Assembly: GCF_030684315.1 (NCBI RefSeq)
Contig: NC_081354.1
Span: 66,402,685-66,466,684, forward strand
Origin: Stegostoma tigrinum
Lineage: Eukaryota
Reading direction: 5' to 3'
Length of the DNA stretch: 64,000 nucleotides
In this document: one piece after another, positions 20,741 to 62,597 of the stretch
Position numbering within the stretch: the stretch's first letter is position 1
Layout: each line of letters begins with the position of its first letter
Notes under the pieces: generated by a model
What the model was told of the DNA's origin: nothing
What the model saw: the letters and a program-made list of their open reading frames with translations, nothing else
Database searches by the model: none
Made by a program: the position numbers and the translations under genes

Positions 20741-20788
20741 AGTTTTTCGAAAGTACTACGGCAAAAATGCGTGAATGCCACTTTGATG

Positions 20789-21087
20789 AGATTAGATTAG
20801 ATTAGATTCCCTACAGTGTGGAAACAGGCCTTCGGCCCAACAAGTCCACACCTCCCCTTGATATATCCCACCCAGACCCATTCCCCCTATAACCCACACA
20901 CTCCTGAACACTACAGGCAATTTAGCATGGCCAATCCACCTAGCCTGCACATCTTTGGATTGTGGGAGGAAACCGGAGCACCCGGAGGAAATCCACGCAA
21001 ACACAGGGAAAACGTGCAAACTCCACACGGACAGTCACCTGAGGCTGGAATCGAACCCGGATCCCTGGTGCTGTGAGGCTGCAGTGC
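20789..21087 (-). mobile_element. HE1 SINE, 5'-truncated, with (CTAAT)n tail
   Basis: (attag)n at 20791-20808; V-domain; B-box ggttcgattcc on the minus strand. Confidence 0.93.
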
Positions 21088-25022: not shown

Positions 25023-26179
25023 GGTATAAATCCTCTATCAATGCTTCATTCTGCCTTTTAAGTGAAGTCAGCTCAGCACATTTTCAGTTTTCCTAAAAGA
25101 CACATTTCCTCTAAACTGTGTGATTATTGCTGATTGTTACTTTGTTATATTGAAATGAAGATTGATGATTAAAATCGATTAAACCTCCAACTGTTGACAT
25201 ACGGTGGGTGTAGCAGACACCATTGGGATTTTTTTTGTTTGTGTAATAGATTAGATGAAACAAAAACAATTGTGTGAGATAAAAAGAGTCTATTTTATCA
25301 CCTTTTCATTTGTGCAAGTTGTCAGTTGACATTTGTTAAATATTCCCATTGAAATTTCTGGCAATAACATTAAACAATAAAAACATGAAAGAAATGCAAA
25401 AGAATTCTGACAGGTGCATAAAAAGTGCTTGGCTTCTAATTGCTATCCAAAATTCCATTCATGGCAATTAAAAATGCAACTGTTATTTGATGTACATGAA
25501 CTAGATGTCTCTTTTGCAGATTTCTTGCCAGCAGTTATTGCTGAAGGTCTTTTCTGAATAGCATTTTCCCTGTTGAAAAATCATTTTAAAACAATGACTT
25601 TCGAATTGATAATTGCAGCCTCAAATCCATGAAAACATACACTTACTGCTCTGCCTTGTAGAATGTGTGAAAAAAATTGAAGTGCCAGAATACTGAAGTG
25701 GTTCAATTTAGTTCCAATTAGAAAAATGTCCACCCCAAAGAAAACTAGCTTAATGATTATTCTGAATAGGCACTAATTTGCTCTCTATATGAATAAGGCA
25801 TTAAATCGTACAAATACACATGGCGTGGTGGTAGTGTTCCAGATAGCCCAGATTCAAATCACACCTGGTCAGGAATTTTATCCAGCATATCTAACCAGAT
25901 TGCTTTAAGAGACCACCTAAAAGCTTATCATTGAGTCATATAACATGACCCATGTCTGAGAAGGCAGTCAAAGTGACATGGTATAGACAGGTGAAAGGCA
26001 GAAAACTTTGGATGTCAGGACTGTCTTTGCTGGTTAGCCCCTTTTTAAAGATATTTATAAAAGAGGTCTATTATGGCAAATCGGTAATATCCCTCCCTCT
26101 AGTCCAAGTTCATCTGCCCCAATTGTGTGTTATGACATGGTTGTTTTAAAATGACTTTATGCCTCAAATCTAAAAGTCA

Positions 26180-26488
26180 AAGAATCCCTACAGTGTGGGA
26201 ACAGGTCCTTCAGGCAAAAAAGTCCACAACAGCCCTCAGAGCATCCCACTCAGATCCATCCCTCATAACCCACCTAATCTACACATCCCTGAACACTATG
26301 GGAAATTTAGCATGGCCAATCCACTTAGCCGGTACATCTTTGGACTGTGGGAGGAAACCGGAGCGTCTGGAGAAAACCCACACCGACACAGGGAGAATGT
26401 GCAAACTCCACACAGACAGGATGGAATCAAATCCAAGTCCCTGGCACTATGAGACAGCAGTGCTAACCAGTGAGTCACTGTGCTGCCC
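26180..26488 (-). mobile_element. HE1 SINE
   Basis: Head, V-domain and tail as in the other copies. Confidence 0.9.
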
Positions 26489-27460: not shown

Positions 27461-27500
27461 TTAATTTTGAAATGAGAGTACACCAAACTCAGCTTTTACT

Positions 27501-27622
27501 AAGATAATAAAGTGTGAAGCTGGATGAAGCTTTTGTGCTCCTGAGATGCTGCTTGGCCTGCTGTGTTCATCCAGCTTCACACTTTATTATCTTGGATTCT
27601 CCAGCATCTGCAGTTCCCATTA
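27501..27622 (+). mobile_element. Fold-back Penelope mini-element with 12-bp TSD
   Basis: TSD tcagcttttact at 27489-27500 and 27623-27634; 27501-27528 is an inverted copy of the internal ttcatccagcttcacactttattatctt. Confidence 0.88.
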
Positions 27623-28729
27623 TCAGCTTTTACTCAATTTAGTCTGCAGCACCATGTTCCTTAATTTGACATTATTTAGATTATGGTACAAGAACGGTTG
27701 TGTATGGAATCTAAATGCATCATTACATTAACATGCATTCTTCTAAGGATAAACTGCAGTATTTGGAAGGTAATTTTCTGCTGTTCATGAGCTATAATGA
27801 ATTGGGGACTGTTTTTGGGATGATATCAAACCAGTGTGAAATTAGCAGGGCCAGAATGAGCAGCCTATTTTCCAATGTCTTTTTTCCATCGAAATACTGA
27901 AACTGAAGTTCTAACACTTTGCAGGCTTATTTCCCACTCTCATCATAATGGATGCTTAATTTGAAATCGAAAACATTAGCAATATTTTCCAAGCCAATGC
28001 AGAAGAAAAACTGGCACAGTGTGGATGTTGCTAGAAGCCTTTCCCATCTGTCTGGCAGAGATAAATTTCTCCCCTGTTCTGGATACAACGGGGGGACTTT
28101 TGACAGAATTTCTCTTGACATACAATGTTGATCGGAGAGCACAGAAACTAAGGGGAAACAGCATTCATCCTATTTTTTAAGACTTCTGTGGCTCTGCCGC
28201 CAGTTAGGGTAAACATATAAGCAGATCTTTATGAATTCAATGTAACTAATAATCACAGCATTCTTCCTTCATAGTAATGGGTGAAATAACTTACTTGAAA
28301 ATTCAGCTTGACTTATTGAACACATTCTCTCCCTTCATTTTTTTTGGTTATTCAAATGTCATTAAAGTTTACCTTTTTAAGGAAATTTCTTTTAAGGAAA
28401 TTCCTTTTGGTTAGGTTTGATATTTTTGGCATCTACCACTTTCTCATTCATATTCTTATCTAATGTATATTTTATACATCAGTCCCATTTGCCTCAACTG
28501 CTTCTAGTTGTAAAGTATTCCATGTTCCCATAGTTCTCTGGGTAAACAAGTGTATTCTGAATTAATTTCTGTTTGATTTTTTTTGGTGACTACCTTCATA
28601 TAGATGGCCTGTAATTTAGCTTTTTTTTATATATGGAAAATTCACTTTACATCTACTCCACCAAAACCTTTTATTATTTTAGAAATCTTTAAATACCTCT
28701 TTACAGGATCCCAGTTTAATAACTCATAT

Positions 28730-29322
28730 GGGGAGACAGTATGGTATTATCACTAGTCTGTTAATCCAGAGACCCAGGGGATGTTCTGGGGTTAGAGATA
28801 ATGGGAACTGCAGCTGCTGGAGAATCCAAGATAACAAAGTGTGAAGCTGGATGAGCACAGCAGGCCAAGCAGCATCTCAGGAGCACAAAAGCTGACGTTT
28901 CGGGTCCAGACCCTTCATCCGATGCTCTCCAATGAAGGGTCTAGGCCCGAAACATCAGCTTTTGTGCTCCTGAGATGCTGCTTGGCCTGCTGTGTTCATC
29001 CAGCTTCACACTTTGTTATCTTCGATGTTCTGGGGTTATCGGTTTGAATCCCACCATGGTAGATGGTGGAATTTGAATTCAATAAAAATCTGGAGTTAGA
29101 GGTCTCACGACAACCATGAAATCATTCCCGATTGATAGGAAAATCCATCTAGTTCACTGACATCCTTTCGGGAAGGAAATTGCCATCCTTACCAGGTCTG
29201 GCCTCTATGTGACTCCAGATCCGCAGTAATGTGGTTTACTCTGAATTGCCGGATAAACAATTAGGGATGGGCAATAAATGCTGGCCTAGTCCCACACCTA
29301 CATTTCATGACAGAAATAAAAC
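28730..29322 (+). mobile_element. tRNA-headed SINE with L2-like 3' tail, interrupted by a Penelope mini-element
   Basis: Head ggggagacagtatggtattatcact..ggtttgaatccc; tail aattagggatgggcaataaatgctggcctag; same family as 59180-59565 and 63535-63870. Confidence 0.8.
28795..29023 (-). mobile_element. Palindromic Penelope pLTR mini-element with 15-bp TSD
   Basis: TSD gatgttctggggtta at 28780-28794 and 29024-29038; inverted arms ~28828-28918 and ~28932-29022. Confidence 0.9.
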
Positions 29323-30020
29323 AATCTGGAAGATAGCACCTTGAAAATGCAGCGCTTTCACTTTTGTTTGTGAATTTTCACTTATTTTGTGTGCCTGTGG
29401 ACTACGAGTTGAATTAATCACTCTCTGACCAGAAGAAAAGCATGTCATTTGAGGACTATCTAAGACATTTCAAAGTTTGAGTGGTCTGTTGAGTAAATGA
29501 ATCTTCTTTGATTTTGCTGATTATACACTTTTTGTGAATAAATAGCGTTAATTCTGGAAAATTGTAGCAAAAATACAGAGATTGTGTGTGCAGCTGATGG
29601 TGTTGCAAATCTGTACCAATGTAATTTGTCATTGTCATTTGTGGTCATTATTCACCCTCTCTCTTTTTACATGTCCCGTCAATAAGCCACACTGAGCCTC
29701 TGGGCGGTGTCACAGTCAGATCCATGGATGAATAGGAACTCTCATTAAGCAGATCACTGGAGCCCTCAAACAATGACTAGGATATTTTTGGTTAATTTCC
29801 AGGATAGAATCCAGAAAGAATGCCTTAAATGACAATTGTTTATGCTTCTCCAACTTTGATTTTCAGTGGCAATATTTGTGATATATAAAGGAATGGTGGA
29901 AACCCAACAGGGCTCCAATATCAAAACACTAAGCTGAGCTTTGCAGAACGTCAATAACATGTGAAGAGGAGCCTTACCTTAACAATTATGGTAAACTAAT
30001 TATATTTGTTCCTCCACAAG

Positions 30021-30110
30021 ATTGATCTGTCCTCGCACCAGAGCCATCAAACAAATAATGTGGGCGCTCTGCCAAGCAGCCTATTGTATAACGCAAAGGG
30101 TGAAAAATTG
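30021..30110 (+). other. Candidate 90-nt exon or conserved non-coding element
   Basis: ttcctccacaag acceptor, TTG|gtgagt donor, two open frames (IDLSSHQ...; LICPRTR...), retained CpGs; protein not recognised. Confidence 0.2.
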
Positions 30111-30847
30111 GTGAGTCCAGCTGTAGATTCTTAAAGGGTCAGATGTGGCATCCTCCTGAAATGTGTCTCCAGAGAGTCTTAGTAACTATGTCCAACCAGC
30201 CAATGTAACTCATGTATGTTGCCAACGTGCAAAAAAACTACATCTTGCTCTTAAATTTACTCTCGTCATGACTCACATAGTTTATCCCCTATCAATGTTT
30301 ATCAATTAAATTCTTAAACCAGTAAAGCGGAATGGTGGCAGTAATTTCCCTAACCACAAATGGCTAGTGATTGGATCGACAAACATATCAGAAACCTACT
30401 ACAAACACCACAAGCAGCATCATCTCTCGGTTTTTATCCTAGTGCTATTATTTATTGTTATTTGACATGTTTGATGCTGTGGGTGACTGATGAAAACATT
30501 GATAATCAGCTACGTTCAATACAAAATTGTCAATAATGATTCATTTTGCACTTCTGAGCCATGTTATCAGAACAGAATTAATGCTATACCACTTTGTACA
30601 TTATTCAGTCCATTTTTTAAAAATATTGCATTCTTTTGGTCAATGCCAGTTTTTTGGAAGATTTTCACTGCAGGGCCTGGTGAAATTATTTGCCTTGGTT
30701 TACCAAACTTGCCTTGCTAATTACACAGCAACCCCACCCCCCCGCTTCAGAATCAGCTGCATCGCTAACACCCATGGCCCATTTTGCATCTCATTGAGCA
30801 CTGCCATTATAAAGCTGCTTTGATCACTCAAGGACAAGAGTTTGAAC

Positions 30848-31085
30848 ATGTCAGAGAGGGGGAAAATTGCATTGGCTTTCTCTGACGAGGACCTTGAGGT
30901 CCTGGGGAATGGCCGGCCCAGAGGAGTGTGTTGTCTTCCTTGTGGAATGGCAGAGCAGACCATGCCACCAGATTCTGCCAGCCCGGTCTGAAGTCATCAG
31001 ATGGGTGTGAACTATCTCCAGGATGTGAAGGGATGGCGAGCAATACAGGAATTAAAAAGCTCAGTGACTTAACCACTCTGCAAGG
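30848..31085 (+). pseudogene. PIF/Harbinger transposon Myb/SANT-like (NAIF1/MSANTD-type) gene remnant
   Basis: MSERGKIALAFSDEDLEVL, then frameshifted QRSVL..HQILPARSEVIRWV and KKLSDL..SAR followed by a degenerate donor gcaagt. Confidence 0.55.
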
Positions 31086-32130
31086 GCAAGTGCCACACTC
31101 TTCTCTCTGCCATGTTGCACTCACTCCTTCCCTTCTACTGCACTCATCTCCCATCATGGCTTATGTTCTGCCACTTGTGCAAGCCAGTCCCTTATTCTCG
31201 CCAACGTACTACAACATCTCATACTGCGAATAACACTGTAATTTGTTATTAGTTTTTCAAGTAACATAATGCTGATGAAAAGTAACATGACACAAACCAA
31301 TGAGACATCCAACATAAACACTTGGGAATTGCTGTCATAAATAGCCCTAATAGATTGTGAGCATCTGTCTTCCATTGGGCCTCATTCCCATTTTCACTCA
31401 ACACTGGCACTAGTAGTTGAATCTATCACAACTTACATTGGTAATTCCCACTCTGAACAGAGATTTAAGAATTTAGAACAGATTTATTATGGATAAAATT
31501 GACTGGAATTACATGGAGATGTGAAGTGTTTACTACATTACACTGAATAAAAGTAAATTGTTTGAATTTGAATGAGACTGTGTGTCCATATATAATTATA
31601 GCTCTAATCCCACCTTATTCAAACACACCTATTGACTCCCTAGTGCATTGTGACATTGACTATTTTGTGTGCTATTGTTTTTGGTAACAAAGTCCGCCAT
31701 CAATGCCTTCCTCATTAATTGGTGGATTTACTGATAAAGGCAAGATAGAAAATTTCAGTCTTTGAGCAGTGGAAAGTGGGTCAGTTTCTGGGACAGCCTA
31801 TTTGTTATAGATGTTCCCTTGTGACACTCCTGTGCTTTTACAGGTGTAGATGTAAAGCAAAGACTGTCAAAGGAATAACATCAGACATATGTTAAACTAA
31901 AAGCAAGGAAAGGAGTATAATGCAGAATTTTTAAAATGATGATAATGAGAAAAAGGGTGAAAATGAATGAATGAGAAGCAGTATGGAATGAAACACGTAC
32001 CCTGGTGTGTGCTCAACCTCCAGCAGATTATCTTTCCTTTATGTATCTTTAAATATATTTGCTCTTGGTCTCCTCTGCAATGGAGAGTTGAAATGCATAC
32101 TGAGTGACTGCTTTGTGCAAAAGCTACATT

Positions 32131-32910
32131 CATAAATAAATGTGGATGCTGGATGTCAGGAACACATAAAATCATAAATTGCTGGAGAAACTCAGCAGAT
32201 ATGGCAGCATCTGTGGAAAGAGGGATACAGTTAATGTTTTGAGTCCAGTGATCCTTCTTCAGAGTTGCTAGCAACTCGGAAAACGTGATATTTATGATGA
32301 AGACCAGGGGGTGGGGGAAGGAGTGAGCAAATAAAAATGACCCTAACCTTCCAGATTTCTCCACCATGCTCCCTGTTAAAACACTTCTGACTCAGGCCGG
32401 CTGCATTACTCCAGCAAGACTCAATACAAGTTGTAAGAACAACATCATCTTCCATTTGGGTACATTACAGCCTTCAGGTCTCAATATTGAGTTTAATAAT
32501 TGTAGAGAAGGAGCACCTGTTCCAACATCGATTACCCACTTCCATACCCCAAGTACTGCCATGACATGGGTTTCTTTCAGCACTGCCAACCCATTTTCAC
32601 CCAGTCATAGCCCCCATTAGCAATTTTCAAGCTTCTCTTTAGCTTTCTATCAATAAGCCCTTTGCCTTTTTATTCTCCCTCTCTTTCTCTGCACTTTGTC
32701 TTCACCTATTTGCTCACTTCTTCCCCCGACCCCCTTTTCTTCATCATAAATATCACGTTTTCTGAGCTGCTAGCATCTCCGAAGAAGGGTCACTGGACTC
32801 AAAACATTAACTGTCTCCCTCTTTCCACAGATGCTGCCATATCTGCTGAGTTTCTCCAGCAATTTATGATTTTATGTGTCCCTGACATCCAGCATCCACA
32901 TTTATTTATG
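32131..32910 (+). mobile_element. Older Penelope family: 3' fragment with ~200-bp inverted pLTRs
   Basis: 32131-32333 is the reverse complement of 32707-32910; interior reads IIFHLGTLQPSGLNIEFNN (ORF 32366-32620); degenerate hammerhead ccgaaga-agggtcactggactc-aaaacatt at ~32779-32808. Confidence 0.85.
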
Positions 32911-34239
32911 CTGTATTTGCTTTATGTTGATTTTTGTATGATATTCTACATACAATATGAACTTGAGGTAGGTAATATGATATTGAAAAATCAAATGGAA
33001 ATTTATTACAACTTACTAATATATGCTAATATTACATCTAGAAGCACATCTGCATCTGGGCTAACATTAGTAACACAGTTACAAAGAATAGCACGGTTAC
33101 ATCTGTATTTAATGCTTTAAGTGAGCCAAGATAAGTTAGAAACTGAAACCTTCATACTCTCAGCTCACGTGTATGATATAGTGATGATATCATGAGCATA
33201 TCTCAAGGTTATTTTGGCATATTAACTATGACAGAGCATCCCCCTTTTCACATACATGGCTGTGCTTAACAATGTTGTCAATTTGTGAATTATACACACA
33301 TGTAGAAGTAGTATTTACATAATTAATACTTCAAATTTTGGTGTAGTGTTTTGGTGGTTTGACAACGTTATCCTGATCTGGTAATCACATACCAGTCTGA
33401 AGAGGTATGTGTTGTTCCAGTTGCCCTTGGTTGAGAACTTAGTTTTTTTTTGCTGTCACTCAATGTCACTGTACAATTGTCAGATTTTTCTCCTCACTCT
33501 GTTTTGCATGTGATTAGCTTGTTGGCCAGGGTACAGGGCAGGATGTAATGTTTGATATAAAACTGGAACTTCCAGCTTACGTACCTGGCACAATATCGGT
33601 ACTAAACTTCATATACCACAATACTTATTTATTTGACAGGCAGAACATCTTTTTGGCTTGCTGGCAACATCCTGTCAGTGAAAATCACCACTTGTGTTAC
33701 TACTGCATAGTTGCAGTACGAAGCAGCTAGCTTCACCTGTTTCTGAAAGATGTTGGGTGGGGGATGAGGGGGAAAAAAAACACCTTTCCAGAGTGAACTC
33801 GAGACCAAGAGTAATGATCTTAGGGCCCTTCATGAGTTTGCACAGTATCTGGCAAGAAATTATCTGATGAGGGTAGTTATTATCCAACTGAATGGTTTTG
33901 ATGCGCTGTATTTCAGCATGAGATTTTCATGATGAGTAAAAGCATGTCACTTACTTTTTGCTGTTAAGGCCATTCTTATGGAGTATTTAATTGTAGGAAT
34001 TGCAAATGTGTATACTAAGCCATTAAGGCAGTTTTGCAGTTGGCAGTAGAAGAGAACTTGGTCAATTTCTCATTTAGGATATCATTGAAATAGAACTTAT
34101 TTGACTATCCTATTTCAAATGTCAATTTGAATGCATGACAGAGCCCATCAAGCCCTGTAAGGAACTTCTTATGTCAAGCCACAGATAGAAATAAAATGCA
34201 AACATATCTTCTGACTTCAAGAATATGCAAGGATAAAGG

Positions 34240-34870
34240 GGCTAATCCTCATTCCATCAAAACATGCATCTCATTGAACCCAACATGGGAGTTATTTGTG
34301 AGAACTGGGTCGAGCAGGGAATCTATGCACCACCATATAATAGGACGTACATGATGCAATTGAAATTGAGCAGAACCATGGTGAATACTGATTCTCACAA
34401 TGTTGGTTTGCATAAGTTGGCATGCTATAATACTGTAGTACCTAGTACCTCTGTCTTTAGTTTCCACGTATTGCACATTGGTAAATAGACTGGAAAAGTC
34501 AAATGAGCACACTCATACAGTATTGATTTTGATATGCCAGCCCTGTGTAATCTTCACAAGTTTGAAGGAACCCTCCATCATACAACTGGTTGCAGCAGTG
34601 CATCTATTTGGCCAGTTCATGTTATACAGAGCCAATCATTGACTAGATACAGTGTAAGGAGACATACTTTTGTGTGCCTTGGGCAGCCCATCAAGTAATG
34701 CACATGAACCTGATCATATATATCATTCGCAACTCCTTGATCTTTAATAAAGCTACCACATATCTATAAGTGTGATTTTGGAGTCATTTCTTTAATGGTG
34801 GCCACCACTGCTAACCAATATATGTGCTTTTCCTCCAGTAGTGTATCTTTTGCCTGATGTGGCATTGCTT
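34240..34870 (-). mobile_element. Degraded Penelope-type reverse transcriptase fragment
   Basis: ORF 34249-34512 MCSFDFSSLFTNV (PLE motif SFDV.SLFTNVP) and SLLDPVLTN...GFNE (GSPLGPVLAN-like). Confidence 0.65.
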
Positions 34871-35249
34871 TTGTTATCCCTCATAACAGAAGAATTAGAT
34901 GTGGATAACATGGTACTTCAACAGGTGTTTATTATAGTACACTAATATATACAAATATTACATTCACAGGCCCATCTGCTACGAAGCTACAAAGACTAGT
35001 ATTCTTCCACCAGTATTTCCTTCTTCAAGTAACCCTTCTTGAAGTCTGAGATCTTTTATACCTTCAAGTCACATGCTGTGATAGAGTGATGATGTCACGA
35101 GCATGCCTCTCGTGGTGTCATAAATTACGAACTGTGAAGCATAACATAATACATGGTTAAAAGCACATTTAGGAGGCATTTCATACTTGGTATCCTTTGT
35201 ACCTATTGGCTATCTAGTAATAAAGTTACCAATTTTCTCCATGAAATTA

Positions 35250-36400
35250 TTATGTTCATATTTTTATGAGAAAGTAGGAAATAGTGGAAATATTTTAAAA
35301 AAGACGTGTGATTGTTGAAACCAGAAAAGAGAAGAACAGGCATTGACATCTGTCTAAAAGAATATTGCAAGTAGAGTATCACATAGATTTGTTTTGGGAC
35401 ATTTTTAAGATCTTTATAAATAATTTGACTCCGCTATTATTGAGTGTAGTGCCTACATTTACAGCTGCTATAAGACTGATGAAGGCAGTGGATTTGAAGG
35501 CTCAATGGGATAAGCTGAAGGAAGATTTGAAGGTGCTTGGGAATTGGGCAGTCAGGTGCCAGATTAAATTCATTCAAAGTGAAGAAATGTCAAGTGCTTC
35601 ACTTGAAGACAAAATAAATACATGGAAAGACAACTGCCCAAATGGAGATGGAAATAATGTCCACAGAAAATAGAAGCAAACCTGAGATCATGAGCTGACA
35701 ATACGTTGAAAATATTCCAACAATATTCAGTGAAAATGCATAAAGTAAATGAGATGTTGGCTAACATTTGGCTGAAATAGTGAGATGATTGCATGGCTTA
35801 TAAATAATTGGTATAATTACACTTAGAGTACTATTTACCGTTCTGACCACCACCACACAAGAAGCGTGTTGTTGCTGTTGAAATAATATTAGAAAGCAAC
35901 AACATTGAATGAAGGGGTGGAAAGATAATGTCATGAGTAGCACTTGCGTAAGTAAGCATACTCTCTTTTTAAGAGTCCAACTACGTATTGTGAACCAAAA
36001 CAAGCTACCTCACCTTGTCCAGAAAAGTAAAATTAGAGGCCTTGAGTGGGATGTGAAGTGGGTGTGAGGGTGGAGCTTATAAAGGGGTGTGGGTGGATAA
36101 ATTCAGAACTTTGACAGTAATAGTAGGAACTGCAGATGCTGGAGAATCCGAGATAACAAGGTGTAGAGCTGGATGAACACAACAGGCCAAGCAGCATCTT
36201 AGGAGCGGCTGCTTGGCCTGCTGTGTTCATCCAGCTTTACACCTTGTTATTTCTCATTGACAGTAATTTTTTTTTAAACCCGTGTGGTCGATCTGTGGGA
36301 AAGCCTTCCAAGAGTGAACTGTTCATAATGTTTCATTCACATGTATATTTGATCAATTTCCTTCTGCAAATAACATTTTAGTATACTATGGATGTATAAT
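35250..36400 (+). mobile_element. Ancient CR1/L2-type LINE remnant
   Basis: IFKIFINNL...KLKEDLKVLGNWAVRCQIKF (ORF 35365-35673), resembling LFLIYINDL..LQ.DL..L..WA..WQM.F. Confidence 0.55.
36122..36256 (-). mobile_element. Fold-back Penelope mini-element with 11-bp TSD
   Basis: TSD ttgacagtaat at 36111-36121 and 36257-36267; inverted arms gataacaaggtgtagagctggatgaacac..gcagc / gctgc..gtgttcatccagctttacaccttgttat. Confidence 0.88.
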
Positions 36401-36513
36401 TTAAGATACAGCATGGTAAATTTGGCAAACTTGGAAAGAAAAAAATGTAACTTTGTATTTATAATTCTCAAAGCTTTCCTTCACTGGAACTTTGGGTTTG
36501 CTGTGAATTAATT

Positions 36514-36824
36514 GGGGGCGGCACAGTGGCGCAGTGGTTAGCACTGCAGCCTCACAGCGCCAAGGACCCAGGTTTGATTCCCGCCTCAGGCGACTGTCTG
36601 TGTGGAGTTTGCACATTCTCCCCGTGTCTGCGTGGGTTTCCTCCGGGTGCTCCAGTTTCCTCCCACAGTCCAAACATGTGCAGGCTAGGTGGATTGAACA
36701 TGCTAAATTGCCCGTAGTGTTCAGGGTTATGGGGGGGATGGGCCTGGATGGGATGCTTCAAAGGGCAGTGTGAACTTGTTGGGCCGAAGGGCCTGTTTCC
36801 ACGCTGTAGGGAATCTAATCTAAT
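36514..36824 (+). mobile_element. Full-length HE1 SINE
   Basis: A box tggcgcagtgg, B box ggtttgattcc, V-domain, tail gtagggaatctaatc; taattg on both sides (36509-36514 and 36821-36826). Confidence 0.95.
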
Positions 36825-38697
36825 TGTTTAAAATTGGTTACTGCGTTTCATCAACAACCATTATTATTGCATCATGCAACGACCAAATGATAGGAAGTGA
36901 TCCAGATAGATTTTAATCTACTTTCATCAAACAATTTCAATGCTTTCCAGGCAGCTTTTCTAGCTCACTAATATAGCTCGAAACAAACTGATTGTTGGAT
37001 ATTTTTCATTATTTCTAATTTGCAAAAGTTGTCAATGAGAAAGTTAGCTAGAAGTCATAATTATAAAGAGATTGCTTATGTTTACACTCCTGTGAAATAA
37101 TTAGCTTTTATTGATTTTGCGAATAAATCATATAACAAGATTTTGCATACGTTAATGCAAAGTAGTTTTGTAATTAGAGGTTGAAAATCATGCCCCATGG
37201 GTTCATAAACAATGCAGGAGACAGCAAGCAGGAATCCACAAGTGGGTTTTGTATTGAAATTAGGATCAGGTGGTATTTGTTAATTCAAACGTAATCTGTA
37301 CATTAATCTCCTATACATATTATAAGAAACATGTTGATATTACAGGTAGCATTTTTGTCTTTGGAGTGACCAAGCTATTTAATGTCACCCTGGCTGCTAT
37401 TAAAGCTCTCCACGCAAACGCAGTTGGGAGATTTATTGGTGCCTCCTGAGTCTACAGCACTAGTTATTTTGAACTGAAATTGCATTACATCATATTAGAG
37501 TTGAGCATGTGGCATTTGTTACAGCTGGTACCTTGTCGTACATTCCATCAGCGACAGAATGTGGCACAACATTAGGGTTGTTTGATATAGTTCTCCATCA
37601 CCAATCCACCTTTATCTGTGTTGTCTCTAGGATTTTTCTAATGATCAGCGGTGAAGAATAAACCACTGCGGATTCTTTAAAGAAAAGGCACTTGTCTTTA
37701 TTCAACATGTTTTCTTGCAATCAATTTAATGTGAAACTTTCTTTTAAACGAGTTGTATTGAATGAAACCATTTCAAGAAATATACATGGAATTTTAACAG
37801 CATTTTAAGAAGGAATTAAATATAATTTTTTTACTATTTAAGGAGCCAACTCACTGGTCTAATTGTAGCAAGAATATTGAATATTTTTCCTTCAAAAAAT
37901 CATTGCAAAGGGGGAAAAATTACTGTATTTACTTTACATCAGATTTCAAAAGTGATTTTTGTACTCACATTCAAAATTTTGTGATTAAAAATTGAACAGA
38001 AGGAATCTTCCTCACTCCCATAATGATAAATTGAAAATTGTACAAAAATGTTGAGAAACTTGTACAGTATTAATCTATCACACAGTTGTAGTGTTAAATA
38101 TAAGTTTTTTTTTAATATGTCTGGTGGAGACCTTTACACATTGGACACTGAATGTGAATAATTTCTCAATAATTTATTTTAATAGCCAAAAAACTGTACA
38201 GCTCAGAATCCAAAATTCCAATCTGCTGTCTTGGTAGGTAGGGTTCATCATTGGGAACACAACATTGGATAATCATTCCTACAGTCTAGAATTTCTGACC
38301 CTTTGTCTGAATCTCACTCATAATGACATTATAAAATTACTAAATTACAGACAGAGAGAAAACCATTAGCCTTTTTAGTTATGTTTAAAATGGTTATTGA
38401 AAGCTTGCATAGTTACAAGTAAAGGGTTACACTTCTATGATCTAGGAGCATTAAATCTGCTTCATGTAATCGTCTTTGTTAGGTTTTGTTTTATTAGGTA
38501 ATTATTCTTGCATTTTGGAGTATTTGAGGATAGAATTTATCTTGTGTTTTAGCTTTGGAATAATTCATGGTTTTCCAGTACTGTCACCAAATTTTTAAAA
38601 AAGTTAGTTAGCCTAAAAAAGGTATTGACTGCATTAGTGAAAAGTTTTGTAATGTTAGGATTTTCACCAGCCAGCTAGACAGCTAACAAACCGAGGG

Positions 38698-40683
38698 TAA
38701 TAAAACGTGAGGCTGGATGAACACAGCAGGCCCAGCAGCATCTCAGGAGCACAAAAGCTGACGTTTCGGGCCTAGACCCTTCATCAGAGAGGGGGATGGG
38801 GTGAGGGTTCTGGAATAAATAGGGAGAGAGGGGGAGGCGGACCGAAGATGGAGAGAAAAGAAGATAGGTGGAGGGGAGAGTATAGGTGGAGAGGTGGGGA
38901 GGGGATAGGTCAGTCCAGGGAAGACGGACAGGTCAAGGAGGTGGGATGAGGTTAGTAGGTAGGAGATGGAGGTGCGGCTGGGGTGGGAGGAAGGGATGGG
39001 TGAGAGGACGAACAGGTTAGGCAAGCAGAGACAGGTTGGACTGGTTTTGGGATGCAGTGGGTGGAGGGGAAAAGCTGGGCTGGTTGTGTGGTGCAGTGGG
39101 GGGAGGGGACGAACTGGGCTGGTTTTGGGATGCAGTGGGGGAAGGGGAGATTTTGAAGCTGGTGAAGTCCACATTGATACCATTGGGCTGCAGGGTTCCC
39201 AAGCGGAATATGAGTTGCTGTTCCTGCAACCTTCGGGTGGCATCATTGTGGCACTGCAGGAGGCCCATGATGGACATGTCATCTAAAGAATGGGAGGGGG
39301 AGTGGAAATGGTTTGCAACTGGGAGGTGCAGTTGTTTATTGCGAACCGAGCGGAGGTGTTCCGCAAAGCGGTCCCCAAGCCTCCGCTTGGTTTCCCAATG
39401 TCGAGGTAGCCACACCGGGTACAGTGGATGCAGTATGTCACATTGGCAGATATGCAGGTGAACCTCTGCTTAATGTGGAAAGTCATCTTGGGGCCTGCGA
39501 TAGGGGTGAGGGAGGAGGTGTGGGGGCAAGTGTACCATTTCCTGCGGTTGCAGGGGAAGGTGCCGGGTGTGGTGGGGTTGGAGGGCATTGTGGATCGAAC
39601 AAGGGAGTCACGGAGAGAGTGGTCTCTCCAGAAAGCAGACAGGGGTGGGGATGGAAAAATGTCCTGGGTGGTGGGGTCGGATTGTAGATGGCGGAAGTGT
39701 CGGAGGATGATGCGTTGTATCCGGCAGTTGGTGGGGTGGTGTGTGAGAACGAGGGGGATCCTCTTTGGGCAGTTGTGGCTGGGGCGGGGTGTGAGGGATG
39801 TGTTGCGGGAAATGCGGGAGACGCGGTCAAGGGCGTTCTCGACCACTGTGGGGGGAATGTTGCGGTCCTTGAAGAACTTGGACATCTGGGATGTGCGGGA
39901 GTGGAATGCCTCATCGTGGGAGCAGATGCGGCGGAGGTGGAGGAATTGGGAATAGAGAATGGAATTTTTGCAGGAGGGTGGGTGGGAGGAGGTGTATCCT
40001 AGGTAGCTGTGGGAGTCGGTGGCCTTGAAACGCAAACCATTTCCACTCCCCCTCCCATTCTTTAGATGATATGTCCATCATGGGCCTCCTGCAGTGCCAC
40101 AATGATGCCACCTGAAGGTTGCAGGAACAGCAACTCATATTCCGCTTGGGAACCCTGCAGCCCAATGGTATCAATGTGGACTTCACCAGCTTCAAAATCT
40201 CCCCTTCCCCCACCGCATCCCAAAAATCAGCCCAGTTCGTCTCCTCCCCCCACTGCACCACACAACCAGCCCAGCTCTTCCCCTCCACCCACTGTTTCCC
40301 AAAACCAGTCCAACCTGTCTCTGCCTCCCTAACCTGTTCTTCCTCCCACCCATCCCTTCCTCCCACCCCAAGCCGCACCCCCATCTCCTACCTACTAACC
40401 TCATCCCACCTCCTTGACCTGTCCGTCTTCCCTGGACTGACCTATCCCCTCCCTACCTTCCCACCTATACTCTCCTCTCCACCTATCTTCTTTTCTCTCC
40501 ATCTTTGGTCCGTCTCCCCCTCTCTCCCTGTTTATTCCAGAACCCTCACCCGATCCCCCTCTCTGATGAAGGGTCTAGGCCCGAAACGTCAGCTTTTGTG
40601 CTCCTGAGATGCTGCGTTCATCCAGCCTCACATTTTATTATCTTGGATTCTCCAGCATCTGCAGTTCCCATTATCACTGATAC
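38698..40683 (-). mobile_element. Young Penelope-like element with a large inverted duplication: RT C-terminus/GIY-YIG arm (-, 38698-40032) and inverted 3' arm (+, 40033-40683)
   Basis: ORF 39283-40035 DSHSYLGYTSSHPPSCKNSILYSQF...FTCISANVTYCIHCTRCG and ORF 39017-39415 ETKRRLGDRFAEHLRS..GTLQPNGIN; 38698-39317 mirrors 40033-40640; acaaacc on both flanks. Confidence 0.95.
40563..40592 (+). ncRNA. Minimal type I hammerhead ribozyme motif in the pLTR; matching cores at 38760-38787 (-), 43878-43905 (+) and 45704-45731 (-)
   Basis: CTGATGA a GGGT CTAG GCCC GAAA C GTC^ag: intact CUGANGA and GAAA boxes, stem II, palindromic ACGU in place of stem III, GUC cleavage triplet. Confidence 0.75.
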
Positions 40684-41259
40684 AAACCACCTAGGGTGTT
40701 GTTTTTCCTGAGGGCCCAGTCAGCCACAGGCCAGCTGGGAATCAGGCAGCAGTGAGGCCAGCTGCATGCCTACTCATTCAATTGAGACCCCAGAGATGGA
40801 AATGTCACTTAATGACAGTTGCCAGCTAGTCAGGCCTGCAACTGTTGTAGTTGGCAAAAGGACATGGGTGCCACCAAATGGACACCCAACCTTAGCTTTC
40901 AGAGTCCCAGGATCACAAATGATTCAGGCCACAGCTAAATGCTGTTGCGTTGGGATTGGGTGGCGATTGTTGGAGAGGGAGGAATGGGTGGTTCGAAGCC
41001 AGGTCGGATGATAGGCTATAACCATCATATCTCTTCCTGATGGTCAGTCTCTTGTTCTGACTCTAATTGCCATTGATCATCGGATCCTATTCTCCTCTCC
41101 CAGTAGCAGTCTACACAGTCTGTCCTGTGATAAGTTTGCCACATGGCAATGGGACAGAGGCAGAATGATCAGGGTTTTAAGTGGTCCTTACTTGTTGCTA
41201 ATTAAATGTTTTTCTGTTTGTAAATCCACTTTCTCAGATACAGATGTGTTAATGTGAAA

Positions 41260-41288
41260 TGTGTGTGTGTGAGAGAGAGAGAGAGAGA
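41260..41288. repeat. Compound (TG)n(AG)n microsatellite
   Basis: Visible directly. Confidence 0.85.
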
Positions 41289-41347
41289 AACTCATATCCA
41301 ATGTCATGTTCTTTATCCCTGAATATGTTAAGATTACATTTTGATCC

Positions 41348-42015
41348 AAGATGACAGCAGAGTGAAACTATCCAGCTGGATCTCCTCTGCTCTCCCTGTT
41401 CTTTTTCTTTATTTCTCTGTTTCTCAAACTTTCAACTTTTACTCACTGGAGGCAAATAGCAGTGAGAAAGGGCAGCCACCTAGGCGGCAGCAAGTCAAGG
41501 CAAGGCCCAGGCCAGGTCAGTATAGAAGTAGCGAGTCAAGGCAAACACTAGAGGCAAGGTCCAGGCCAGGCCGATGTGGAGGCAGCAAGCCCAGGCCAGG
41601 CCAGCATGGAGACAGTGAGCTCAGATGAGTCCCAGAGACAAGGCCCAGGCCCGGCCGTCACAGAGACGGTGAGTCCGGGCGAGTCTTGGAGACGAGTGGA
41701 ACAGAGGCCAGTGCTGGCATAGTGGTGAGTCCCTTCGGTGCTGCAAGTGAGGCCTTCAGGATCGATGCCCAGCATCTCCCATACACTTGACCCGGTGGTC
41801 TGAAAGCTGGCATGGACTTGGTTAAAAGACTACAGTTGAGTACTTTTTAAAAGAAAGCTTCTTTATCCTTTATTCTTATGCTGAACTTTTATTTATGATT
41901 CTCTCAAGTCTGTAACACATACTTACCCTGTACCTAAGATGGTGCCAAGAGGCAACATTACAAACTTTCACTGTGCTCATTTGTGAGAATGTGACTATAA
42001 AGGCTAATTCTAATT
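41348..42015 (+). mobile_element. Non-autonomous retroposon with Rex-Babar-like 3' tail and an internal GC-rich minisatellite
   Basis: Tail ctttcactgtgctc..atgtgactataaaggctaattctaat; repeated gcaaggcccaggccaggcc units at ~41495-41655; related to 45950-46450. Confidence 0.5.
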
Positions 42016-42289
42016 GACCATACATGAAAGGATCAGTACAAAATACTAATGATTAACCTGTAAAGGTTTATATTCTGAGTGCCAATGGACTGTACTGTGA
42101 CATCTTAAAGAATCCAACCAAAACATTTTACTCAGCACTATATTCATTTCATGCTTTATGCAAATTTTTTTCAATTGCCTTTCACTCGATGTCCTCAAAC
42201 TTCAAGCCTGTGAGACTGCTGATTCTGATCCTCACTCTTGACATTCCATAGCATTACTATCACTGACTGGTAACCCCTCGGATTTTGAC

Positions 42290-42490
42290 AGCAGGGCATT
42301 GTCCAGAAATTGATCCATAAAGATACTGCGGGTACAACAGCAGATCAGAGACTAGGAATTTTAAAGCAATTAACTCACCTTCTAACTCAGTAAAGTCTGT
42401 CCACTGTCTATAAAGCACAAGTCAGGAGTATGATAGAATATTCTCTGCTTGGCTGGATAAATGCAGCCTCACAGCACTCGAAGCTCATCC
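42290..42490 (+). mobile_element. L2-like LINE fragment
   Basis: ctgtccactgtctataaagcacaagtcaggagtatgatagaatattct (LSTVYKAQVRSMIEYS). Confidence 0.7.
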
Positions 42491-42769
42491 ATTTTCTTGT
42501 TGCACAGGTTGCAACAACCTTGAAACTATTTGCCAGATGTGAGGGCCAAGGCTGCTGTACTACTAGATTTCCCTTACTGCCTCACTTGTAGTCACATCCT
42601 CCTGTCCCTGATGACTGACCAAATTGGAAGACCCTGTGCTATGGGATGCAGTAGCTTCCTGGAACAAAATGACCAGGAAACTCTCCCTCTTCCTAATATC
42701 ACAGTTTGATGGCCATGGTTGAGGAGTAGGGATGGTGGAGTAATGCCTGTGTGGTGTGCAGGGAAAAAA

Positions 42770-43022
42770 AGTGGTTTAGCACTGCTGCCTCACAGCGCCA
42801 GGGACCCAGGTTCATTTCTAGCCACGGGCAACCGTCTGCGTGGGTTTCCTCCGGTTTCATTCCCACAATCCAAAGATGTGCAGGTTAGGTGGATCGGCCA
42901 TGCTAAATTGCCCATAGTGTTCAGGGATGTGTAGATTATAGGGGGATGGGTCTAGGTGGGGTGCTCTGAGAGTCCGTGTGGGCAGAAGGGCCTCTTTCAA
43001 CACTGTAGGGATTCTATGAATT
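42770..43022 (+). mobile_element. HE1 SINE, 5'-truncated with internal deletion
   Basis: gtggtttagcactgctgcctcacagcgccagggaccc...cactgtagggattctatg. Confidence 0.88.
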
Positions 43023-43059
43023 AAGTTTAAAAAAGAAGAAAAATTAGGCAGGATTTGTT

Positions 43060-43620
43060 ACACTCAATTACATGGAAACAGACCATTCAGCCCAACTAGT
43101 TTTTCATAGTAGGATGAGGATACTCATCCTATTGATCTCATTAATGTATTTCAATATATTTTCCTATTACCAATAAAGCTAGTTCAATTTAATTCAGTTT
43201 TCTTCACATATACATCTAGTTTTCTTTTGAAAGTATCTAAGCACTTTACATCAAACAATTCTTTTTGAAGTGAATTCCACATTCTAATCACAATAGGTAA
43301 TTTAGCCGTACTTCCCTATTCGATTTATAATCAACTGTCATGCATTTCTGGCTTCAAGTTTTGAATTATCCTCTAAGTGGAATCATTCTCTCTACATCTA
43401 TCCAGTCCAGCCATTCATAATTTTTTAACACCTGTAATAAAAAACTTTAAAGTCATTTCTTCTTGAAAACAAAACAATGGTATGATGGGTGAAGTTTCTC
43501 CCCTCTAGTTTCTGCAGTGCCTTCTGTTCATTCTTATAGTATATGCAATAGATCTGCACACAATTTTGAAAGTGCAAGCTGACCAAGGGTCCTATCCAAA
43601 TTTCACTTAATTCCACTACT
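43060..43620 (-). mobile_element. Old CR1 3' fragment
   Basis: ggaaacagaccattcagccc reverse tail; reverse-strand GPLVSLHFQNCVQ (LVRPHLEYCVQ-like). Confidence 0.55.
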
Positions 43621-43871
43621 TTTGAATTTTACAGCCTTAGAAGTAATTGAGAGGATGGAATATTACAGACACCTGAGTTGGTGGGCTATGGTGAGATTTG
43701 TGGCAGAATTGGACATGAAGCCTGGCAAGACCCAACTCAACATCTGGAGCATTGCACTCCATTCTTTATGTTTTTTACAAGCAGCTTGGCAAGTTTCTCA
43801 TTTGGGACTTGCCAGTCAATAGGTGTGATTACTTTTCAAATGTCTTAAAGGCTCAACTCACCTAATTAATA

Positions 43872-43967
43872 AGCTCTCTGATGAAGGGTCCAGGCCCGAA
43901 ACGTCAGCTTTTGTGCTCCTGAGATGCTGCTGGGCCTGCTGTGTTCACCCAGCCTCACATTTTATTA
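43872..43967 (+). mobile_element. 96-bp Penelope pLTR mini-element with an intact hammerhead core and 14-bp TSD
   Basis: TSD tcacctaattaata at 43858-43871 and 43968-43981; CTGATGA..GAAACGTC at 43878-43905; lacks the ~35-nt 3' tail. Confidence 0.9.
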
Positions 43968-44932
43968 TCACCTAATTAATATTCCACTTTGCACTGCCTA
44001 CCAGTCCCACCAAAGAAGCTACATGTTGAGATAACTCAACATAGAAATCCATGCACATACTTCCCCATTTATCTCACCACGTTCTCCAAATGACCTCCAT
44101 GTTATGTATAACCAACAGGGCATGATCAACAGGCTCCAGCCTCATGCAACCCTTGTCCACAAACATTGGAATCTGACCTCTGCCAGTCCCTCACAACCAT
44201 CTGGCCACCTCTCCAATACATTGACAGAGGTCTGTCAAAGCAGAGGCTTGCAGTGCAGGGTGCATTGGGTACTAAGATCGAAAGGCTGCGGCAAGGACAT
44301 GTGTGCATGACTGGCACCCAGTTGAAGGAATGGATCAGACTGCATCTCAGTGCTGCTTGCTTGCTCTCTTAGCGCTCACTCCCTTAATGCATACCTGCTT
44401 GCCATGCCTTGCTCTCACCTTACCTTGCTGTGCCTGTTAATACAGTCACAAAACAAGGCAGTTGTCTTACTGGTCAGCAGTTCTCAGTAAAGGTGGCTAC
44501 ATCTTCCTAATGGCAGTGTGCTAGGTCAATCTTAAGCATGCAACATTTACCAGCAGCTTATGTGACAAATACACTCCATGCGCGGCGAGCAATCAGCCTT
44601 TCATCACCCATCAATTTACTTCACAATTTTCATCCTGCCATCGAGAAGCTGCCTTTTCATCTTCCATACAGTTTAATGCCACTGCCACCCTTGTTTCTCA
44701 GTCCCAGGGATTTCACCAATTTCACTCATTATTTCTGTTTCAACAAAGAAATGACCTGAGCTGATCACTGTTTCCAATACTTTGATTAATTAATTCTGAT
44801 TTATTTCTTTGTTATCTCTAACACGCACTCCAATTCCTCCAAGACTTTTTTCACATAACAGCAACAGAAGCAACACCTCCCCCTTTACATCCTTTCCTTG
44901 CAATATCCAAAGCCTCAAACAGTCCTTACAAG

Positions 44933-45030
44933 TTCTGAAGAAGAGTCAAGACCCAAAACGTCAGATTTCCTGCACCTCTGATGCTGCTTGGCCTGCTGTG
45001 TTCATCCAGCTCTACACCTCGTTATCTCAG
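44933..45030 (+). mobile_element. Penelope pLTR mini-element with a degenerate hammerhead
   Basis: tCTGAAGAagagtcaagacccAAAACGTCag..gtgttcatccagctctacacctcgttatctc; no clear TSD. Confidence 0.8.
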
Positions 45031-45639
45031 TGATTTGCTTGTACTTCTTTCAATTTGATACATGGTGTTCACGGCTCATGGTGTGGCCATTTCTACACAA
45101 GGGGTACTAAGTACAGATTGAGTGACAACTTTGTGGAATATTTCCATTCAGCCAGCGAATGTATTCCTGTCCTTGTAGTCAGGTGCCATTTAAATGTCTT
45201 ATTCTCATTCTGACCTTTCTGTCCTTCGACTCCTGTAGTTTTCCAATAAAGCTTATCACAAACTCAAGGAACTGCATCTCACCTTTCATCTGGTTACTTG
45301 ACAGCATTCTTACACAACATTGCATTCAATAATTTTAGATTGTTATCTCTGCCCTCACTATATTCCCTTTTGCTTTGCTGATTTTTCCCTTTCTCTCAGT
45401 TCTCTTAATTCCCTTTCATTGTTCTTTAGATGATGGTTATTAAGGATCTTGTCTTTCACACTCACTCTCGTTGTATATGTCTTTCTTGTTCCACTACCAT
45501 TACCTCCGTTTGTACCTATGAAAAAGCATCGTCATTTTATCATTCCTGTCTTCCAACTGCTGACACATTTTCCAGTTTGCTCATTATCCCACATTCCCTC
45601 CATTTTCAATTCCTCAAAACCTATTCCATTTCTAACCTT

Positions 45640-45826
45640 GATAACAAGATGTAGAGCTGGATGAACACAGCAGGCCAAGCAGCATCTTCGGAGCAGGAAA
45701 GCTGACGTTTCGGGCCTAGACCCTTCATCAGCTTTCCTGCTCCTCTGATGCTGCTTGGCCTGCTGTGTTCATCCAGCTTTACACCTTGTTATCTCGGATT
45801 CTCCAGCATCCGCAGTTCCTATAATC
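45640..45826 (+). mobile_element. Fold-back Penelope mini-element with 15-bp TSD (one mismatch)
   Basis: tccatttctaacctt at 45625-45639 and tccatttccaacctt at 45827-45841; inverted arm 45640-45731, forward arm from 45728. Confidence 0.88.
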
Positions 45827-45949
45827 TCCATTTCCAACCTTTTCAGTTAAGATGAATGGAACATAGAGCATTAACTCTGTTTCTCTCTCTATGGTCACTG
45901 ACAGACCTGCCAAACATTTTCTGTTTTTGCTAACATTGTTGACTCTCAA

Positions 45950-62556: not shown

Positions 62557-62597
62557 CTGGCTACAGTACATTCACTTTGTCCTAGTCATTAATATGT

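Follow-up and report, generated by a model that had tools for sequence, protein, structure and literature searches.

Fold-back copies of a retrotransposon lie within a 64,000-nt stretch of the Stegostoma tigrinum genome (hereafter the window), and the forward arm of one begins exactly where a hammerhead motif in the same element is predicted to cut. This raises the question of whether ribozyme cleavage of the template RNA sets the 5' ends of genomic copies. Well over a thousand copies genome-wide start exactly at the predicted cut site, and the excess is seen in four junction classes, namely fold-back, simple, deletion and tandem. We put at about 80% the probability that copies start in excess at GUC^ because the ribozyme would cut a minority of template RNAs in vivo and leave the RT to run off at +1. 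Self-cleavage at GUC^ is what we infer from this genomic junction footprint.

Element identity and insertion structure

Sequence motifs in the linker and the GIY-YIG endonuclease assign the element to the Neptune clade of Penelope-like retrotransposons (PLEs). The Neptune linker is a CX2-5CxxC motif between RT and endonuclease (PMC8557442), and a CX4CxxC motif, mostly CNRRKCYTC, was found in 29 reading frames of family loci, with one C replaced by W in the window copy; a Poseidon label was dropped given this linker. Family copies also carry a VYCIHC...YIGET (GIY-YIG) motif. In the window, self-BLAST places the coding remnant in a long fold-back (38698-40682), in which the start of each arm falls in the ORF. 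Its inverted tail-less arm (38698..40030, minus strand), 5'-truncated in the ORF, holds a Zn-finger-like linker and a GIY-YIG endonuclease region disrupted by frameshifts and stops, while self-BLAST and ORFs show in its tail-bearing forward arm (40032..40682, plus strand) the ORF C-terminus, a pyrimidine-rich UTR, the hammerhead and the tail. Pfam searches of two broken ORF fragments from the window gave no relevant match, and a search of solved structures returned nothing useful. Homologs of the inverted-arm ORF region are 93-96% identical, and one of them, P0002 (93%), passes the Pfam GIY-YIG cut-off; RVT_1 scored above cut-off in homolog P0009 (57%) and below it in P0002, and the window copy is 5'-truncated.

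Insertions have the PLE architecture of an inverted 5'-truncated copy, an optional 30-40 nt tail and a TSD. A TSD of at least 9 nt, most often 14 bp long, accompanies 125 of the 235 tail ends, targets are A-rich immediately upstream of the TSD, like GAAAC, and fold-backs are bounded by unique TSDs. The 3' ends of arms fall into two clusters, +55..+70 (55/121 arms) and +90..+115 (46/121), both of which occur in fold-back and simple copies alike. Two clusters fit two priming events, one per DNA end, better than a template switch, and fold-backs therefore likely arise from two-ended priming; the switch of RT to an inverted copy proposed in the first-pass annotation is not the best reading.

A minimal hammerhead motif

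The forward arm of the long fold-back carries a minimal type I hammerhead motif at 40563..40590 (plus strand, positions -28..-1), composed of CUGAUGA, an extra A, stem II and GAAAC-GUC. Its letters are CTGATGA-A-GGGTCTAGGCCC-GAAACGTC, with AGCTTTT from 40591; we number the first base 3' of GUC^ as +1, which places the predicted cut after 40590. The motif has the CUGANGA...GAAA...UH core of minimal hammerheads (min-HHRs), the extra nucleotide before 10.1, the G10.1-C11.1 pair and the palindrome at 15.2-16.2. Among 128 copies, the stem II pair -20:-9 is formed in 122 and the remaining stem II pairs in 120-125. Helix I comprises 2 bp, with -29:+1 paired in 114 copies, -30:+2 in 108 and -31:+3 in just 18, and its covariation across the 128 copies was not significant (p=0.14). 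An Rfam scan of 26000-64000 found no hammerhead, the sole matches being miRNA-type hairpins under their gathering scores.

Copies in the window

The copy at 27501 joins an inverted arm (27501..27528, minus strand, about +66 to +39) to a forward arm (27528..27624, plus strand, +1..+97) that begins exactly at the predicted cut, with one A belonging to both arms, as the first-pass annotation had it. Its TSD, TCAGCTTTTACT on the plus strand (27489..27500 on the left, 27623-27634 on the right), matches -2..+7 with 9 identical nucleotides, the target itself reading TCAGCTTTT, and this identity weakens the copy as evidence. The second copy said to start at the cut, at 45640, belongs to an older TTCCTGCTCCTCTG subfamily and lies between TSDs at 45625-45639 and 45827-45841. 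Its inverted arm (45640..45731, minus strand) extends to -28, its forward arm (45728..45826, plus strand) could start anywhere in the overlap, and the switch does fall inside TCAG at 45728-45731, positions -2..+2; allowing for CpG decay, the match grows to CATCAG. The overlap arises because CUGA and UCAG are complementary within the ribozyme, and microhomology spanning -2..+2 makes this junction non-diagnostic for a +1 start.

Two further fold-backs depart from the cut site, in agreement with the earlier reading. One (28795..29023, TSD 28780-28794 and 29024-29038) has a tail-bearing minus-strand arm from about -26/-29 and a plus-strand arm from -25 (28932), with short filler between them; the other (36122..36250, TSD 36109-36121 and 36255-36267) has a tail-bearing minus-strand arm from +10 and a plus-strand partner from +21. 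A simple tail-less copy (43874..43969, plus strand, TSD 43858-43871 and 43968-43981) starts at -32. All coordinates given earlier proved correct on re-checking by sequence and self-comparison. The count of two fits among four fold-backs did not hold, since the 45728 junction is ambiguous and the long fold-back, the fifth of the window, had been overlooked, leaving one clear and one ambiguous +1 start among five. The two copies are thus weak examples of the footprint, and two +1 copies of four in the window alone are no more than chance, whereas the genome-wide excess is beyond chance.

Copy starts across the genome

Genome-wide evidence consisted of pattern counts and samples of about 100. De-duplicated tail-bearing arms whose junction falls in -5..+9 number 97, of which 32 start at +1; with 16 symmetric AGCT fold-backs set aside, 16 of 81 still do (p=1.7e-4 against a uniform distribution over 14 positions), as do 9 of 27 non-fold-back junctions (p=7e-5). 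Symmetric fold-backs numbered 742 at the palindrome AGCT(+1), 55 at ACGT(-5), 21 at GGCC(+28, counted with other anchors) and about 150 at GGCC(-13), the last estimated from 14 symmetric cases among 50 elements listed, as the raw 528 is inflated by equal-spacing asymmetric joins; the comparison covers these four palindromes, not CTAG(-16) or those of the tail.

Where three non-consensus bases precede the start, 1102 cases lie at +1, 301 at -3 and 571 at +4. Removing microhomology-type prefixes leaves about 630-705 at +1, and taking T-run insertions together with deletions of C (58 of the 100 cases listed) out of the inflated +4 control leaves about 240, so that the +1 excess stripped of microhomology is only 2-3-fold over -3 and +4; against the nine downstream positions alone, p=0.016. 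The upstream partner was unassigned at 8/26 loci for +1, 2/21 for -3 and 6/21 for +4, and 5 of the 26 +1 loci were fold-backs with overlaps of at least 2 nt. A looser pattern admitting the consensus base at -3 and -1 gave 4594 matches, taken as a lead only, and 30 loci chosen for an intact ribozyme were uninformative on +1.

The same position recurred in the other classes. Small deletions (n=83) resume at +1 in 33 of 60 unambiguous cases (null 14-23%, p<1e-7). By hand count of the 100 head-to-tail joins listed of 131, 50 resume at +1, 2 at +2 and 1 at +3; per locus, 35 of 67 loci with joins within -11..+9 resume at +1, many of these joins lacking any microhomology (both among the joins listed). 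The test of junction positions suggested by the first-pass annotation came out in its favour. The +1 peak is sharp, persists once palindromic and microhomology-bearing junctions are taken out and reappears among deletions and tandem joins, in support of the claim that RNA templates with a 5' end at the hammerhead cut have left a footprint in the genome. A splice-acceptor origin of the +1 starts was rejected, since an AG at +1,+2 would put the starts at +3.

Starts at +1 are rare overall; among 122 unbiased arms there are 2, of which one is the focal copy, and an estimate puts their share at about 1.7%. The main pile-up lies at -27..-32 (33/122 arms) and a further one at -11..-18 (22 arms in a 78-row sample); these larger pile-ups away from the cut indicate that sharp hot spots can arise without cleavage. 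Tandem joins of the older subfamily are at +1 in 6 clear cases (up to 9-10) of about 42, and the +1 share is about 52% in the young subfamily against 14% in the older one.

Tandem arrays

Two loci, L351 and L352, are single insertions of 6 and 5 units, respectively, each with one 15-bp TSD around the entire array and no ribozyme upstream. Every resumed unit starts at +1, whereas tail ends vary unit by unit; the units span +1 to about +100 and carry no ribozyme, and the internal ones measure 98-102 or 105-107 nt, the longer class having an extra A. Fixed +1 starts with varying tail ends fit an RNA whose 5' end is fixed, off which the RT runs again and again. Rolling-circle copying was rejected because joins differ between units of one insertion, and so was DNA-level duplication, which may account for arrays whose joins are identical (L118; C4:79759497-715).

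Alternative explanations

An unlikely alternative is that a fold in uncut RNA, either the ribozyme junction or a rod, stalls the RT, which then drops off near +1. The isolated motif is indeed predicted to fold as an inactive rod (-28..-23 paired with -4..+2), larger pile-ups lie at the rod's other edge (-27..-32) and in stem II, and in the older subfamily both the rod and the +1 peak are weaker. However, stalling at the rod's 3' foot would be expected to give +3 starts or a smear, whereas the listed tandem joins concentrate at +1 (50, against 2 and 1 at the next two positions) and the resumed units of L351 and L352 all begin there.

Less probable still, +1 could be the transcription start of a pLTR promoter, or a host-nuclease cut, that coincides with the hammerhead site. 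TCAGCT is an imperfect match to what we take to be an initiator motif, a resemblance that we count for the promoter. PLE promoters also lie in the pLTR (PMC6765202). Yet either origin demands coincidence with GUC^ to the nucleotide. Of 64 listed non-AGG starts, moreover, 25 have G and 39 have T before +1, so that G, which a copied cap might leave, is not in excess; this argument assumes that a PLE RT copies a cap. Deletions in which the upstream half of the ribozyme is linked to +1 again imply that the upstream RNA was available.

That junctions are set by microhomology and the AGCT palindrome only, +1 being in no way special, we consider very improbable. Half of the 32 +1 starts are symmetric AGCT joins, AGG-AGC overlaps account for 36 of 100 listed starts behind non-consensus bases, and joins at -17, +7 and +9 and the 45728 copy are visibly driven by microhomology. 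Other 4-nt palindromes are nevertheless used 5 to 35 times less than AGCT(+1), and a microhomology-weighted model (beta 2) predicts 0.14, 0.12 and 0.11 at -1, -2 and +1, where 2, 1 and 24 fold-backs were observed (6 at -2 if five -4 calls are added). The +1 start persists in 15 of 65 junctions with microhomology of at most 1 nt or no fold-back, and the zero-overlap tandem and deletion classes already largely refute this explanation.

Finally, the notion that tail-to-+1 joins are new insertions into old copies, which the endonuclease would have cut at their ribozyme site, draws on the TCAGCTTTT target of the 27501 copy, the GAAAC-like A-rich sequence just upstream of TSDs and an intact GAAACGUC upstream of the tail-AGCTTTTG join in 41 matches, but is scarcely credible and largely refuted already, since AGCT begins the TSD in only 2 of 123 targets, just 1 of 35 +1 tandem loci is among those 41 matches (some possibly chance 8-mers), L351 and L352 have a single TSD per array with no upstream ribozyme, and fold-backs sit within unique TSDs.

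A proposed route from cleavage to stubs, fold-backs and arrays

If the ribozyme cuts a minority of templates, as we favour, the element protein would prime cDNA from both DNA ends of a staggered break, with synthesis starting about 60-66 or 97-106 nt downstream of the ribozyme cut, and on a cut RNA the cDNA would end at +1, with four possible resolutions. This end could be joined to target DNA, or it could anneal to the cDNA from the other DNA end, the self-complementary AGCT easing annealing into a symmetric fold-back if both cDNAs had run off at +1. Alternatively, the cDNA could go on along the upstream cleavage product with a few bases lost, leaving a small deletion that ends at -1, or it could serve as primer for a fresh start at +98..+104, and repeated restarts would yield ribozyme-less tandem units of about 100 nt within one insertion. 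Most insertions would come from uncut RNA. We lean towards a fuller version, in which the minimal hammerhead would cleave in the germ line while bound to the element protein and the RT would run off and restart internally many times per insertion.

The footprint, sharp to the nucleotide and shared by four classes of junction, suggests that PLE min-HHRs cut in vivo, in a minority of templates, and makes such cutting testable from assemblies alone in other species. If the fuller version is true, junction statistics would allow the in vivo activity of any PLE ribozyme to be assayed from a genome alone, subfamily differences included, and jumping would be one way in which tandem repeats arise from pLTRs. 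The arrays suggest that a telomerase-related RT jumps repeatedly from an end to an internal site. Symmetric fold-backs offer a simple origin for PLE palindromes.

Comparison with known systems

The function of PLE hammerheads has been called unclear (PMC8557442). The min-HHRs of metazoan PLE pLTRs (PMC4209133; Cervera and de la Pena 2014) share the core, the extra nucleotide before G10.1 and the G10.1-C11.1 pair with the shark motif, and likewise have a palindromic ACGU replacing helix III, and the 2 bp of the shark helix I are as in D. virilis; low in vitro activity and an absence of in vivo evidence were reported for them. That study proposes circles running from cut to cut, whereas the shark units extend from the cut to an internal RT start, contain no ribozyme and are variably joined.

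The Anolis carolinensis Poseidon element PAc (Frangieh et al. 2024, PMC11167929) belongs to a different clade from the shark element with its Neptune linker, yet shows the same internal RT starts downstream of the cut and optional tail, at a distance of 85-92 nt (subtracted from the numbers in that paper) against about 60-66 and 97-106 nt here. The anole protein extends both strands, initiates at two internal sites and aids ribozyme cleavage in vitro; cleavage is dispensable for insertion in vitro, and RNA-seq reads neither began nor ended at the cut. The available text mentions no enrichment of genomic 5' ends at that site, such as the shark element has.

Inverted pLTR/tail structures of PLEs (PMC8557442, PMC3846280) likewise combine an inverted 5'-truncated copy, a 30-40 nt tail at one end and a TSD. 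Central palindromes were there ascribed to self-priming on an antisense template (PMC3846280), whereas two-ended priming with annealing of run-off ends would fit better here. Non-LTR retrozymes (PMC7229834; bioRxiv 10.64898/2026.07.22.740005) are also short tandem repeats from PLE pLTRs, but each of their units contains a hammerhead, while the shark +1 array units contain none and their joins vary. In R2, whose 5' junctions follow the cut site of its ribozyme (Eickbush et al. 2013, PMC3774820), the HDV-like ribozyme similarly sets the template 5' end, genomic junctions record the cut and non-templated bases are added at run-off. That ribozyme is of another class and produces a full-length template, whereas the shark element's cut, at about 100 nt from the RT start, would yield stubs, most insertions passing through uncut RNA.

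Junctions at the predicted cleavage site

The first-pass annotation had read arms that begin at the predicted hammerhead cut as a trace of self-cleavage, which a peak of 5' junctions at GUC^ would support, and such a peak was found. A pattern for tail-bearing arms with upstream sequence off consensus at -10 and -6 gave 3586 matches; here an arm means a single copy of the element's 3' end, whichever way it points. The first 100 matches all lie on contig C1, and after removal of one non-junction and two duplicates (n = 97), 32 began at +1, the A directly after the cut (40591 in the reference copy; -1 is the C preceding it). The remaining starts were distributed as 4, 5, 1, 1 and 3 at -5, -4, -3, -2 and -1, and 4, 4, 7, 5, 9, 13, 6 and 3 at +2 to +9. 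Symmetric fold-backs on the palindrome AGCT made up 16/32 of the +1 starts; with these set aside, 16/81 starts lay at +1 (p = 1.7e-4 over 14 positions; p = 0.016 against nine downstream positions), or 15/79 once window copies were removed too. Outside fold-backs, 9/27 junctions start at +1.

Genome-wide pattern counts over G000, the 3.2-Gb genome that contains the window, gave 742 symmetric fold-backs at AGCT(+1), 55 at ACGT(-5) (anchors as for AGCT, CpG decay allowed), 21 at GGCC(+28) (different anchors) and 528 raw matches at GGCC(-13), where 14 of 50 elements listed were truly symmetric, or about 150 overall. A join model weighted by overlap length expects -1 and -2 to be at least as frequent as +1, contrary to observation. 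Starts after three non-consensus bases numbered 1102 at +1, 301 at -3 and 571 at +4 genome-wide; the last of these bases was required to be G or T, so most AGCT palindromes and an added A are excluded. By hand count, 36 AGG and 7 AAG prefixes among 100 listed at +1 were of the overlap type and 58 of 100 listed at +4 were indels, leaving about 630-705 of 1102 and about 240 of 571. On these stripped counts the enrichment at +1 outlasts correction for microhomology, but shrinks to 2-3-fold. In samples of the prefix lists, 5/26 +1 loci were fold-backs with an overlap of at least 2 nt, and 8/26 had no assignable partner.

Small deletions, head-to-tail joins and tandem arrays

Small deletions and head-to-tail joins are two classes of +1 events independent of palindromes. 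Among 83 deletions of at least 2 nt between -10 and +1 genome-wide, hand counting showed that 33 resume at +1, 4 at -1, 7 at -2 and 16 further upstream, with 23 ambiguous through a shared C. Unambiguous deletions thus resume at +1 in 33/60 cases, as against 14-23% expected (p < 1e-7) from enumerated nulls, which, rather than a matching downstream window, served as the control for this one interval. Head-to-tail joins gave 131 matches; by hand count, the 100 listed comprised 50 at +1, 6 at -1, 6 at -2, 12 at -17, 9 at +7, 7 at +9 and 10 at other positions. When the listed joins were merged by locus, 35/79 loci lay at +1, and 35/67 of those within -11 to +9 (p = 8e-28). Joins at -17, +7 and +9 carry overlaps of 2-3 nt, and many +1 joins carry none.

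Two loci hold tandem arrays whose 6-7 units lack a ribozyme, measure about 100 nt each and vary at their tail ends. The first, L351 (G000:C17:68219857-68222886), is one insertion flanked by 15-bp TSDs, in which a first unit from +9 is followed by six units from +1; the internal five measure 102, 100, 98, 101 and 102 nt, whereas the sixth stops near +65. In the second, L352 (G000:C2:105867916-105870947), which also has a 15-bp TSD, an inverted arm and a unit from +8 are followed by five units from +1; the four internal ones, with added A, measure 105, 107, 107 and 107 nt. Within a single insertion the 5' edge stays fixed while the tail edge varies, as would be expected if synthesis repeatedly ran off the template and restarted internally. 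We rejected copying from a circle and duplication at the DNA level as sources of the arrays, as either would repeat one join and the joins in both loci vary. New insertion into old copies is an unlikely source of tandem joins, because no ribozyme lies upstream of either array and, of the 35 +1 loci, just one belongs to the 41 matches that retain an intact ribozyme on their upstream side.

In the older subfamily, hand counting of all 90 listed joins placed only 6 clear and 3-4 possible cases at +1 among about 42 within -11 to +9 (p between 0.017 and 2e-4), a smaller share than in the young subfamily (p < 0.003). Satellites of 50-nt period at G000:C1:3018209-3019677 and 3521216-3524434 apparently come from part of this subfamily's 3' end.

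Window copies and the rarity of +1 starts

Self-comparison of the window gave five fold-back copies (27501, 28795, 36122, 38698-40682 and 45640), with TSDs identified for four, and several simple copies; rechecking confirmed every coordinate of the first-pass annotation. Its claim that two copies start at the cut stood in part: the forward arm at 27528 begins at +1 with a 1-nt overlap, but the switch at 45728-45731 falls within TCAG, and neither is strong alone. The TCAG overlap arises because CUGAUG (-28 to -23) and CGUCAG (-4 to +2) are complementary; this copy, 45640, belongs to the older subfamily. The TSD of copy 27501, TCAGCTTTTACT, has 9 nt identical to -2 to +7. The window also holds an inverted repeat of about 200 bp (32131-32910, 94.6% identity) that does not match the element's 3' end, and a repeat family of about 300 bp (7012-7329, 20239-21087, 26174-26488, 36516-36824, 42834-43022 and 62597-62927), which resembles a tRNA-derived shark SINE.

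Counting against the cleavage reading, starts at +1 are rare. In 687 kb unselected for junctions, 2/122 arms began at +1, one being copy 27501; the largest pile-up was at -27 to -32 (33/122), where some arms belong to the older subfamily and may truly start a few bases further upstream. In a broader sample of 78 rows, in which identical rows count once and two satellite arrays are represented by a minority of their units, 22 arms began at -11 to -18; +1 accounted for 7 arms and a further 2 direct joins. We estimate about 7,400 +1 arms among about 430,000 (1.7%).

The -27 to -32 pile-up sits at the ribozyme's 5' edge, directly downstream of a C-rich tract, and relates to window copies 28795, 43874, 44935, 18345 and 45640; the D. 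virilis element has an intron whose end falls on the 5' side of helix I (PMC4209133, in part). The window also has a long pyrimidine tract at 40400-40545 that resembles a splice acceptor, with TTCCAG at its end, about 50 nt before the cut. An asymmetric fold-back joining an arm from near -31 to one from near +10 also recurs (e.g. G000:C1:30316510).

Origin of the +1 junctions

The explanation to which we give a probability of roughly 0.8 is that a minority of protein-bound RNAs is cut at GUC^, that cDNA on cut RNA runs off at +1, and that its end then meets one of four fates: it joins target DNA, anneals to the opposite cDNA, most readily through AGCT, is extended on the upstream RNA half with small losses, or restarts. 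Arm 3' ends lay at +55 to +70 in 55/121 and at +90 to +115 in 46/121, in fold-back and simple copies alike; at 123 target sites the 6 nt just before the TSD were A-rich (33-46% A), with AGCT preference absent. Stalling of reverse transcriptase at the -28/+2 rod, the strongest rival on the genomic data, is improbable, as it would yield starts at +3 rather than +1. That +1 is a promoter start is more doubtful still, there being no excess of cap G before it (25 G, 39 T among listed starts).

Comparison with known elements

Both the element and its ribozyme, like the fold-backs, belong to known kinds. Sequence and protein comparison identify the window repeat as the 3' end of a Penelope-like element (PLE) with a C-terminal GIY-YIG region, whose closest named relatives are from Stegostoma tigrinum (96%) and Rhincodon typus (93%). 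We assigned it to the Neptune type because 29 frames of family copies hold a CX4CxxC linker, the mark of that type in the accessible part of PMC8557442. PLEs typically show inverted truncated copies and a tail of 30-40 nt (PMC8557442 and PMC3846280, in part), and TSDs of at least 9 nt (mode 14 bp) occurred at 125/235 tail ends. The motif at 40563-40590 (+) carries minimal hammerhead features listed in the accessible part of PMC4209133; across 128 copies, stem II pairs were kept in 120-125, and covariation in the 2-bp helix I was not significant. An Rfam scan did not detect the window's motif.

According to the accessible part of PMC11167929, a PLE protein cuts and extends both strands with two internal starts, and ribozyme cleavage is protein-assisted yet dispensable, with no reads at the cut. 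Our literature search, which covered mainly open-access main texts, turned up no description of PLE 5' ends or tandem units whose position is set by hammerhead cleavage. For R2, the 5' junctions preserve the site of the ribozyme cut (PMC3774820, in part), and the +1 junctions of the element analysed here are likely a genomic record of in vivo cleavage.
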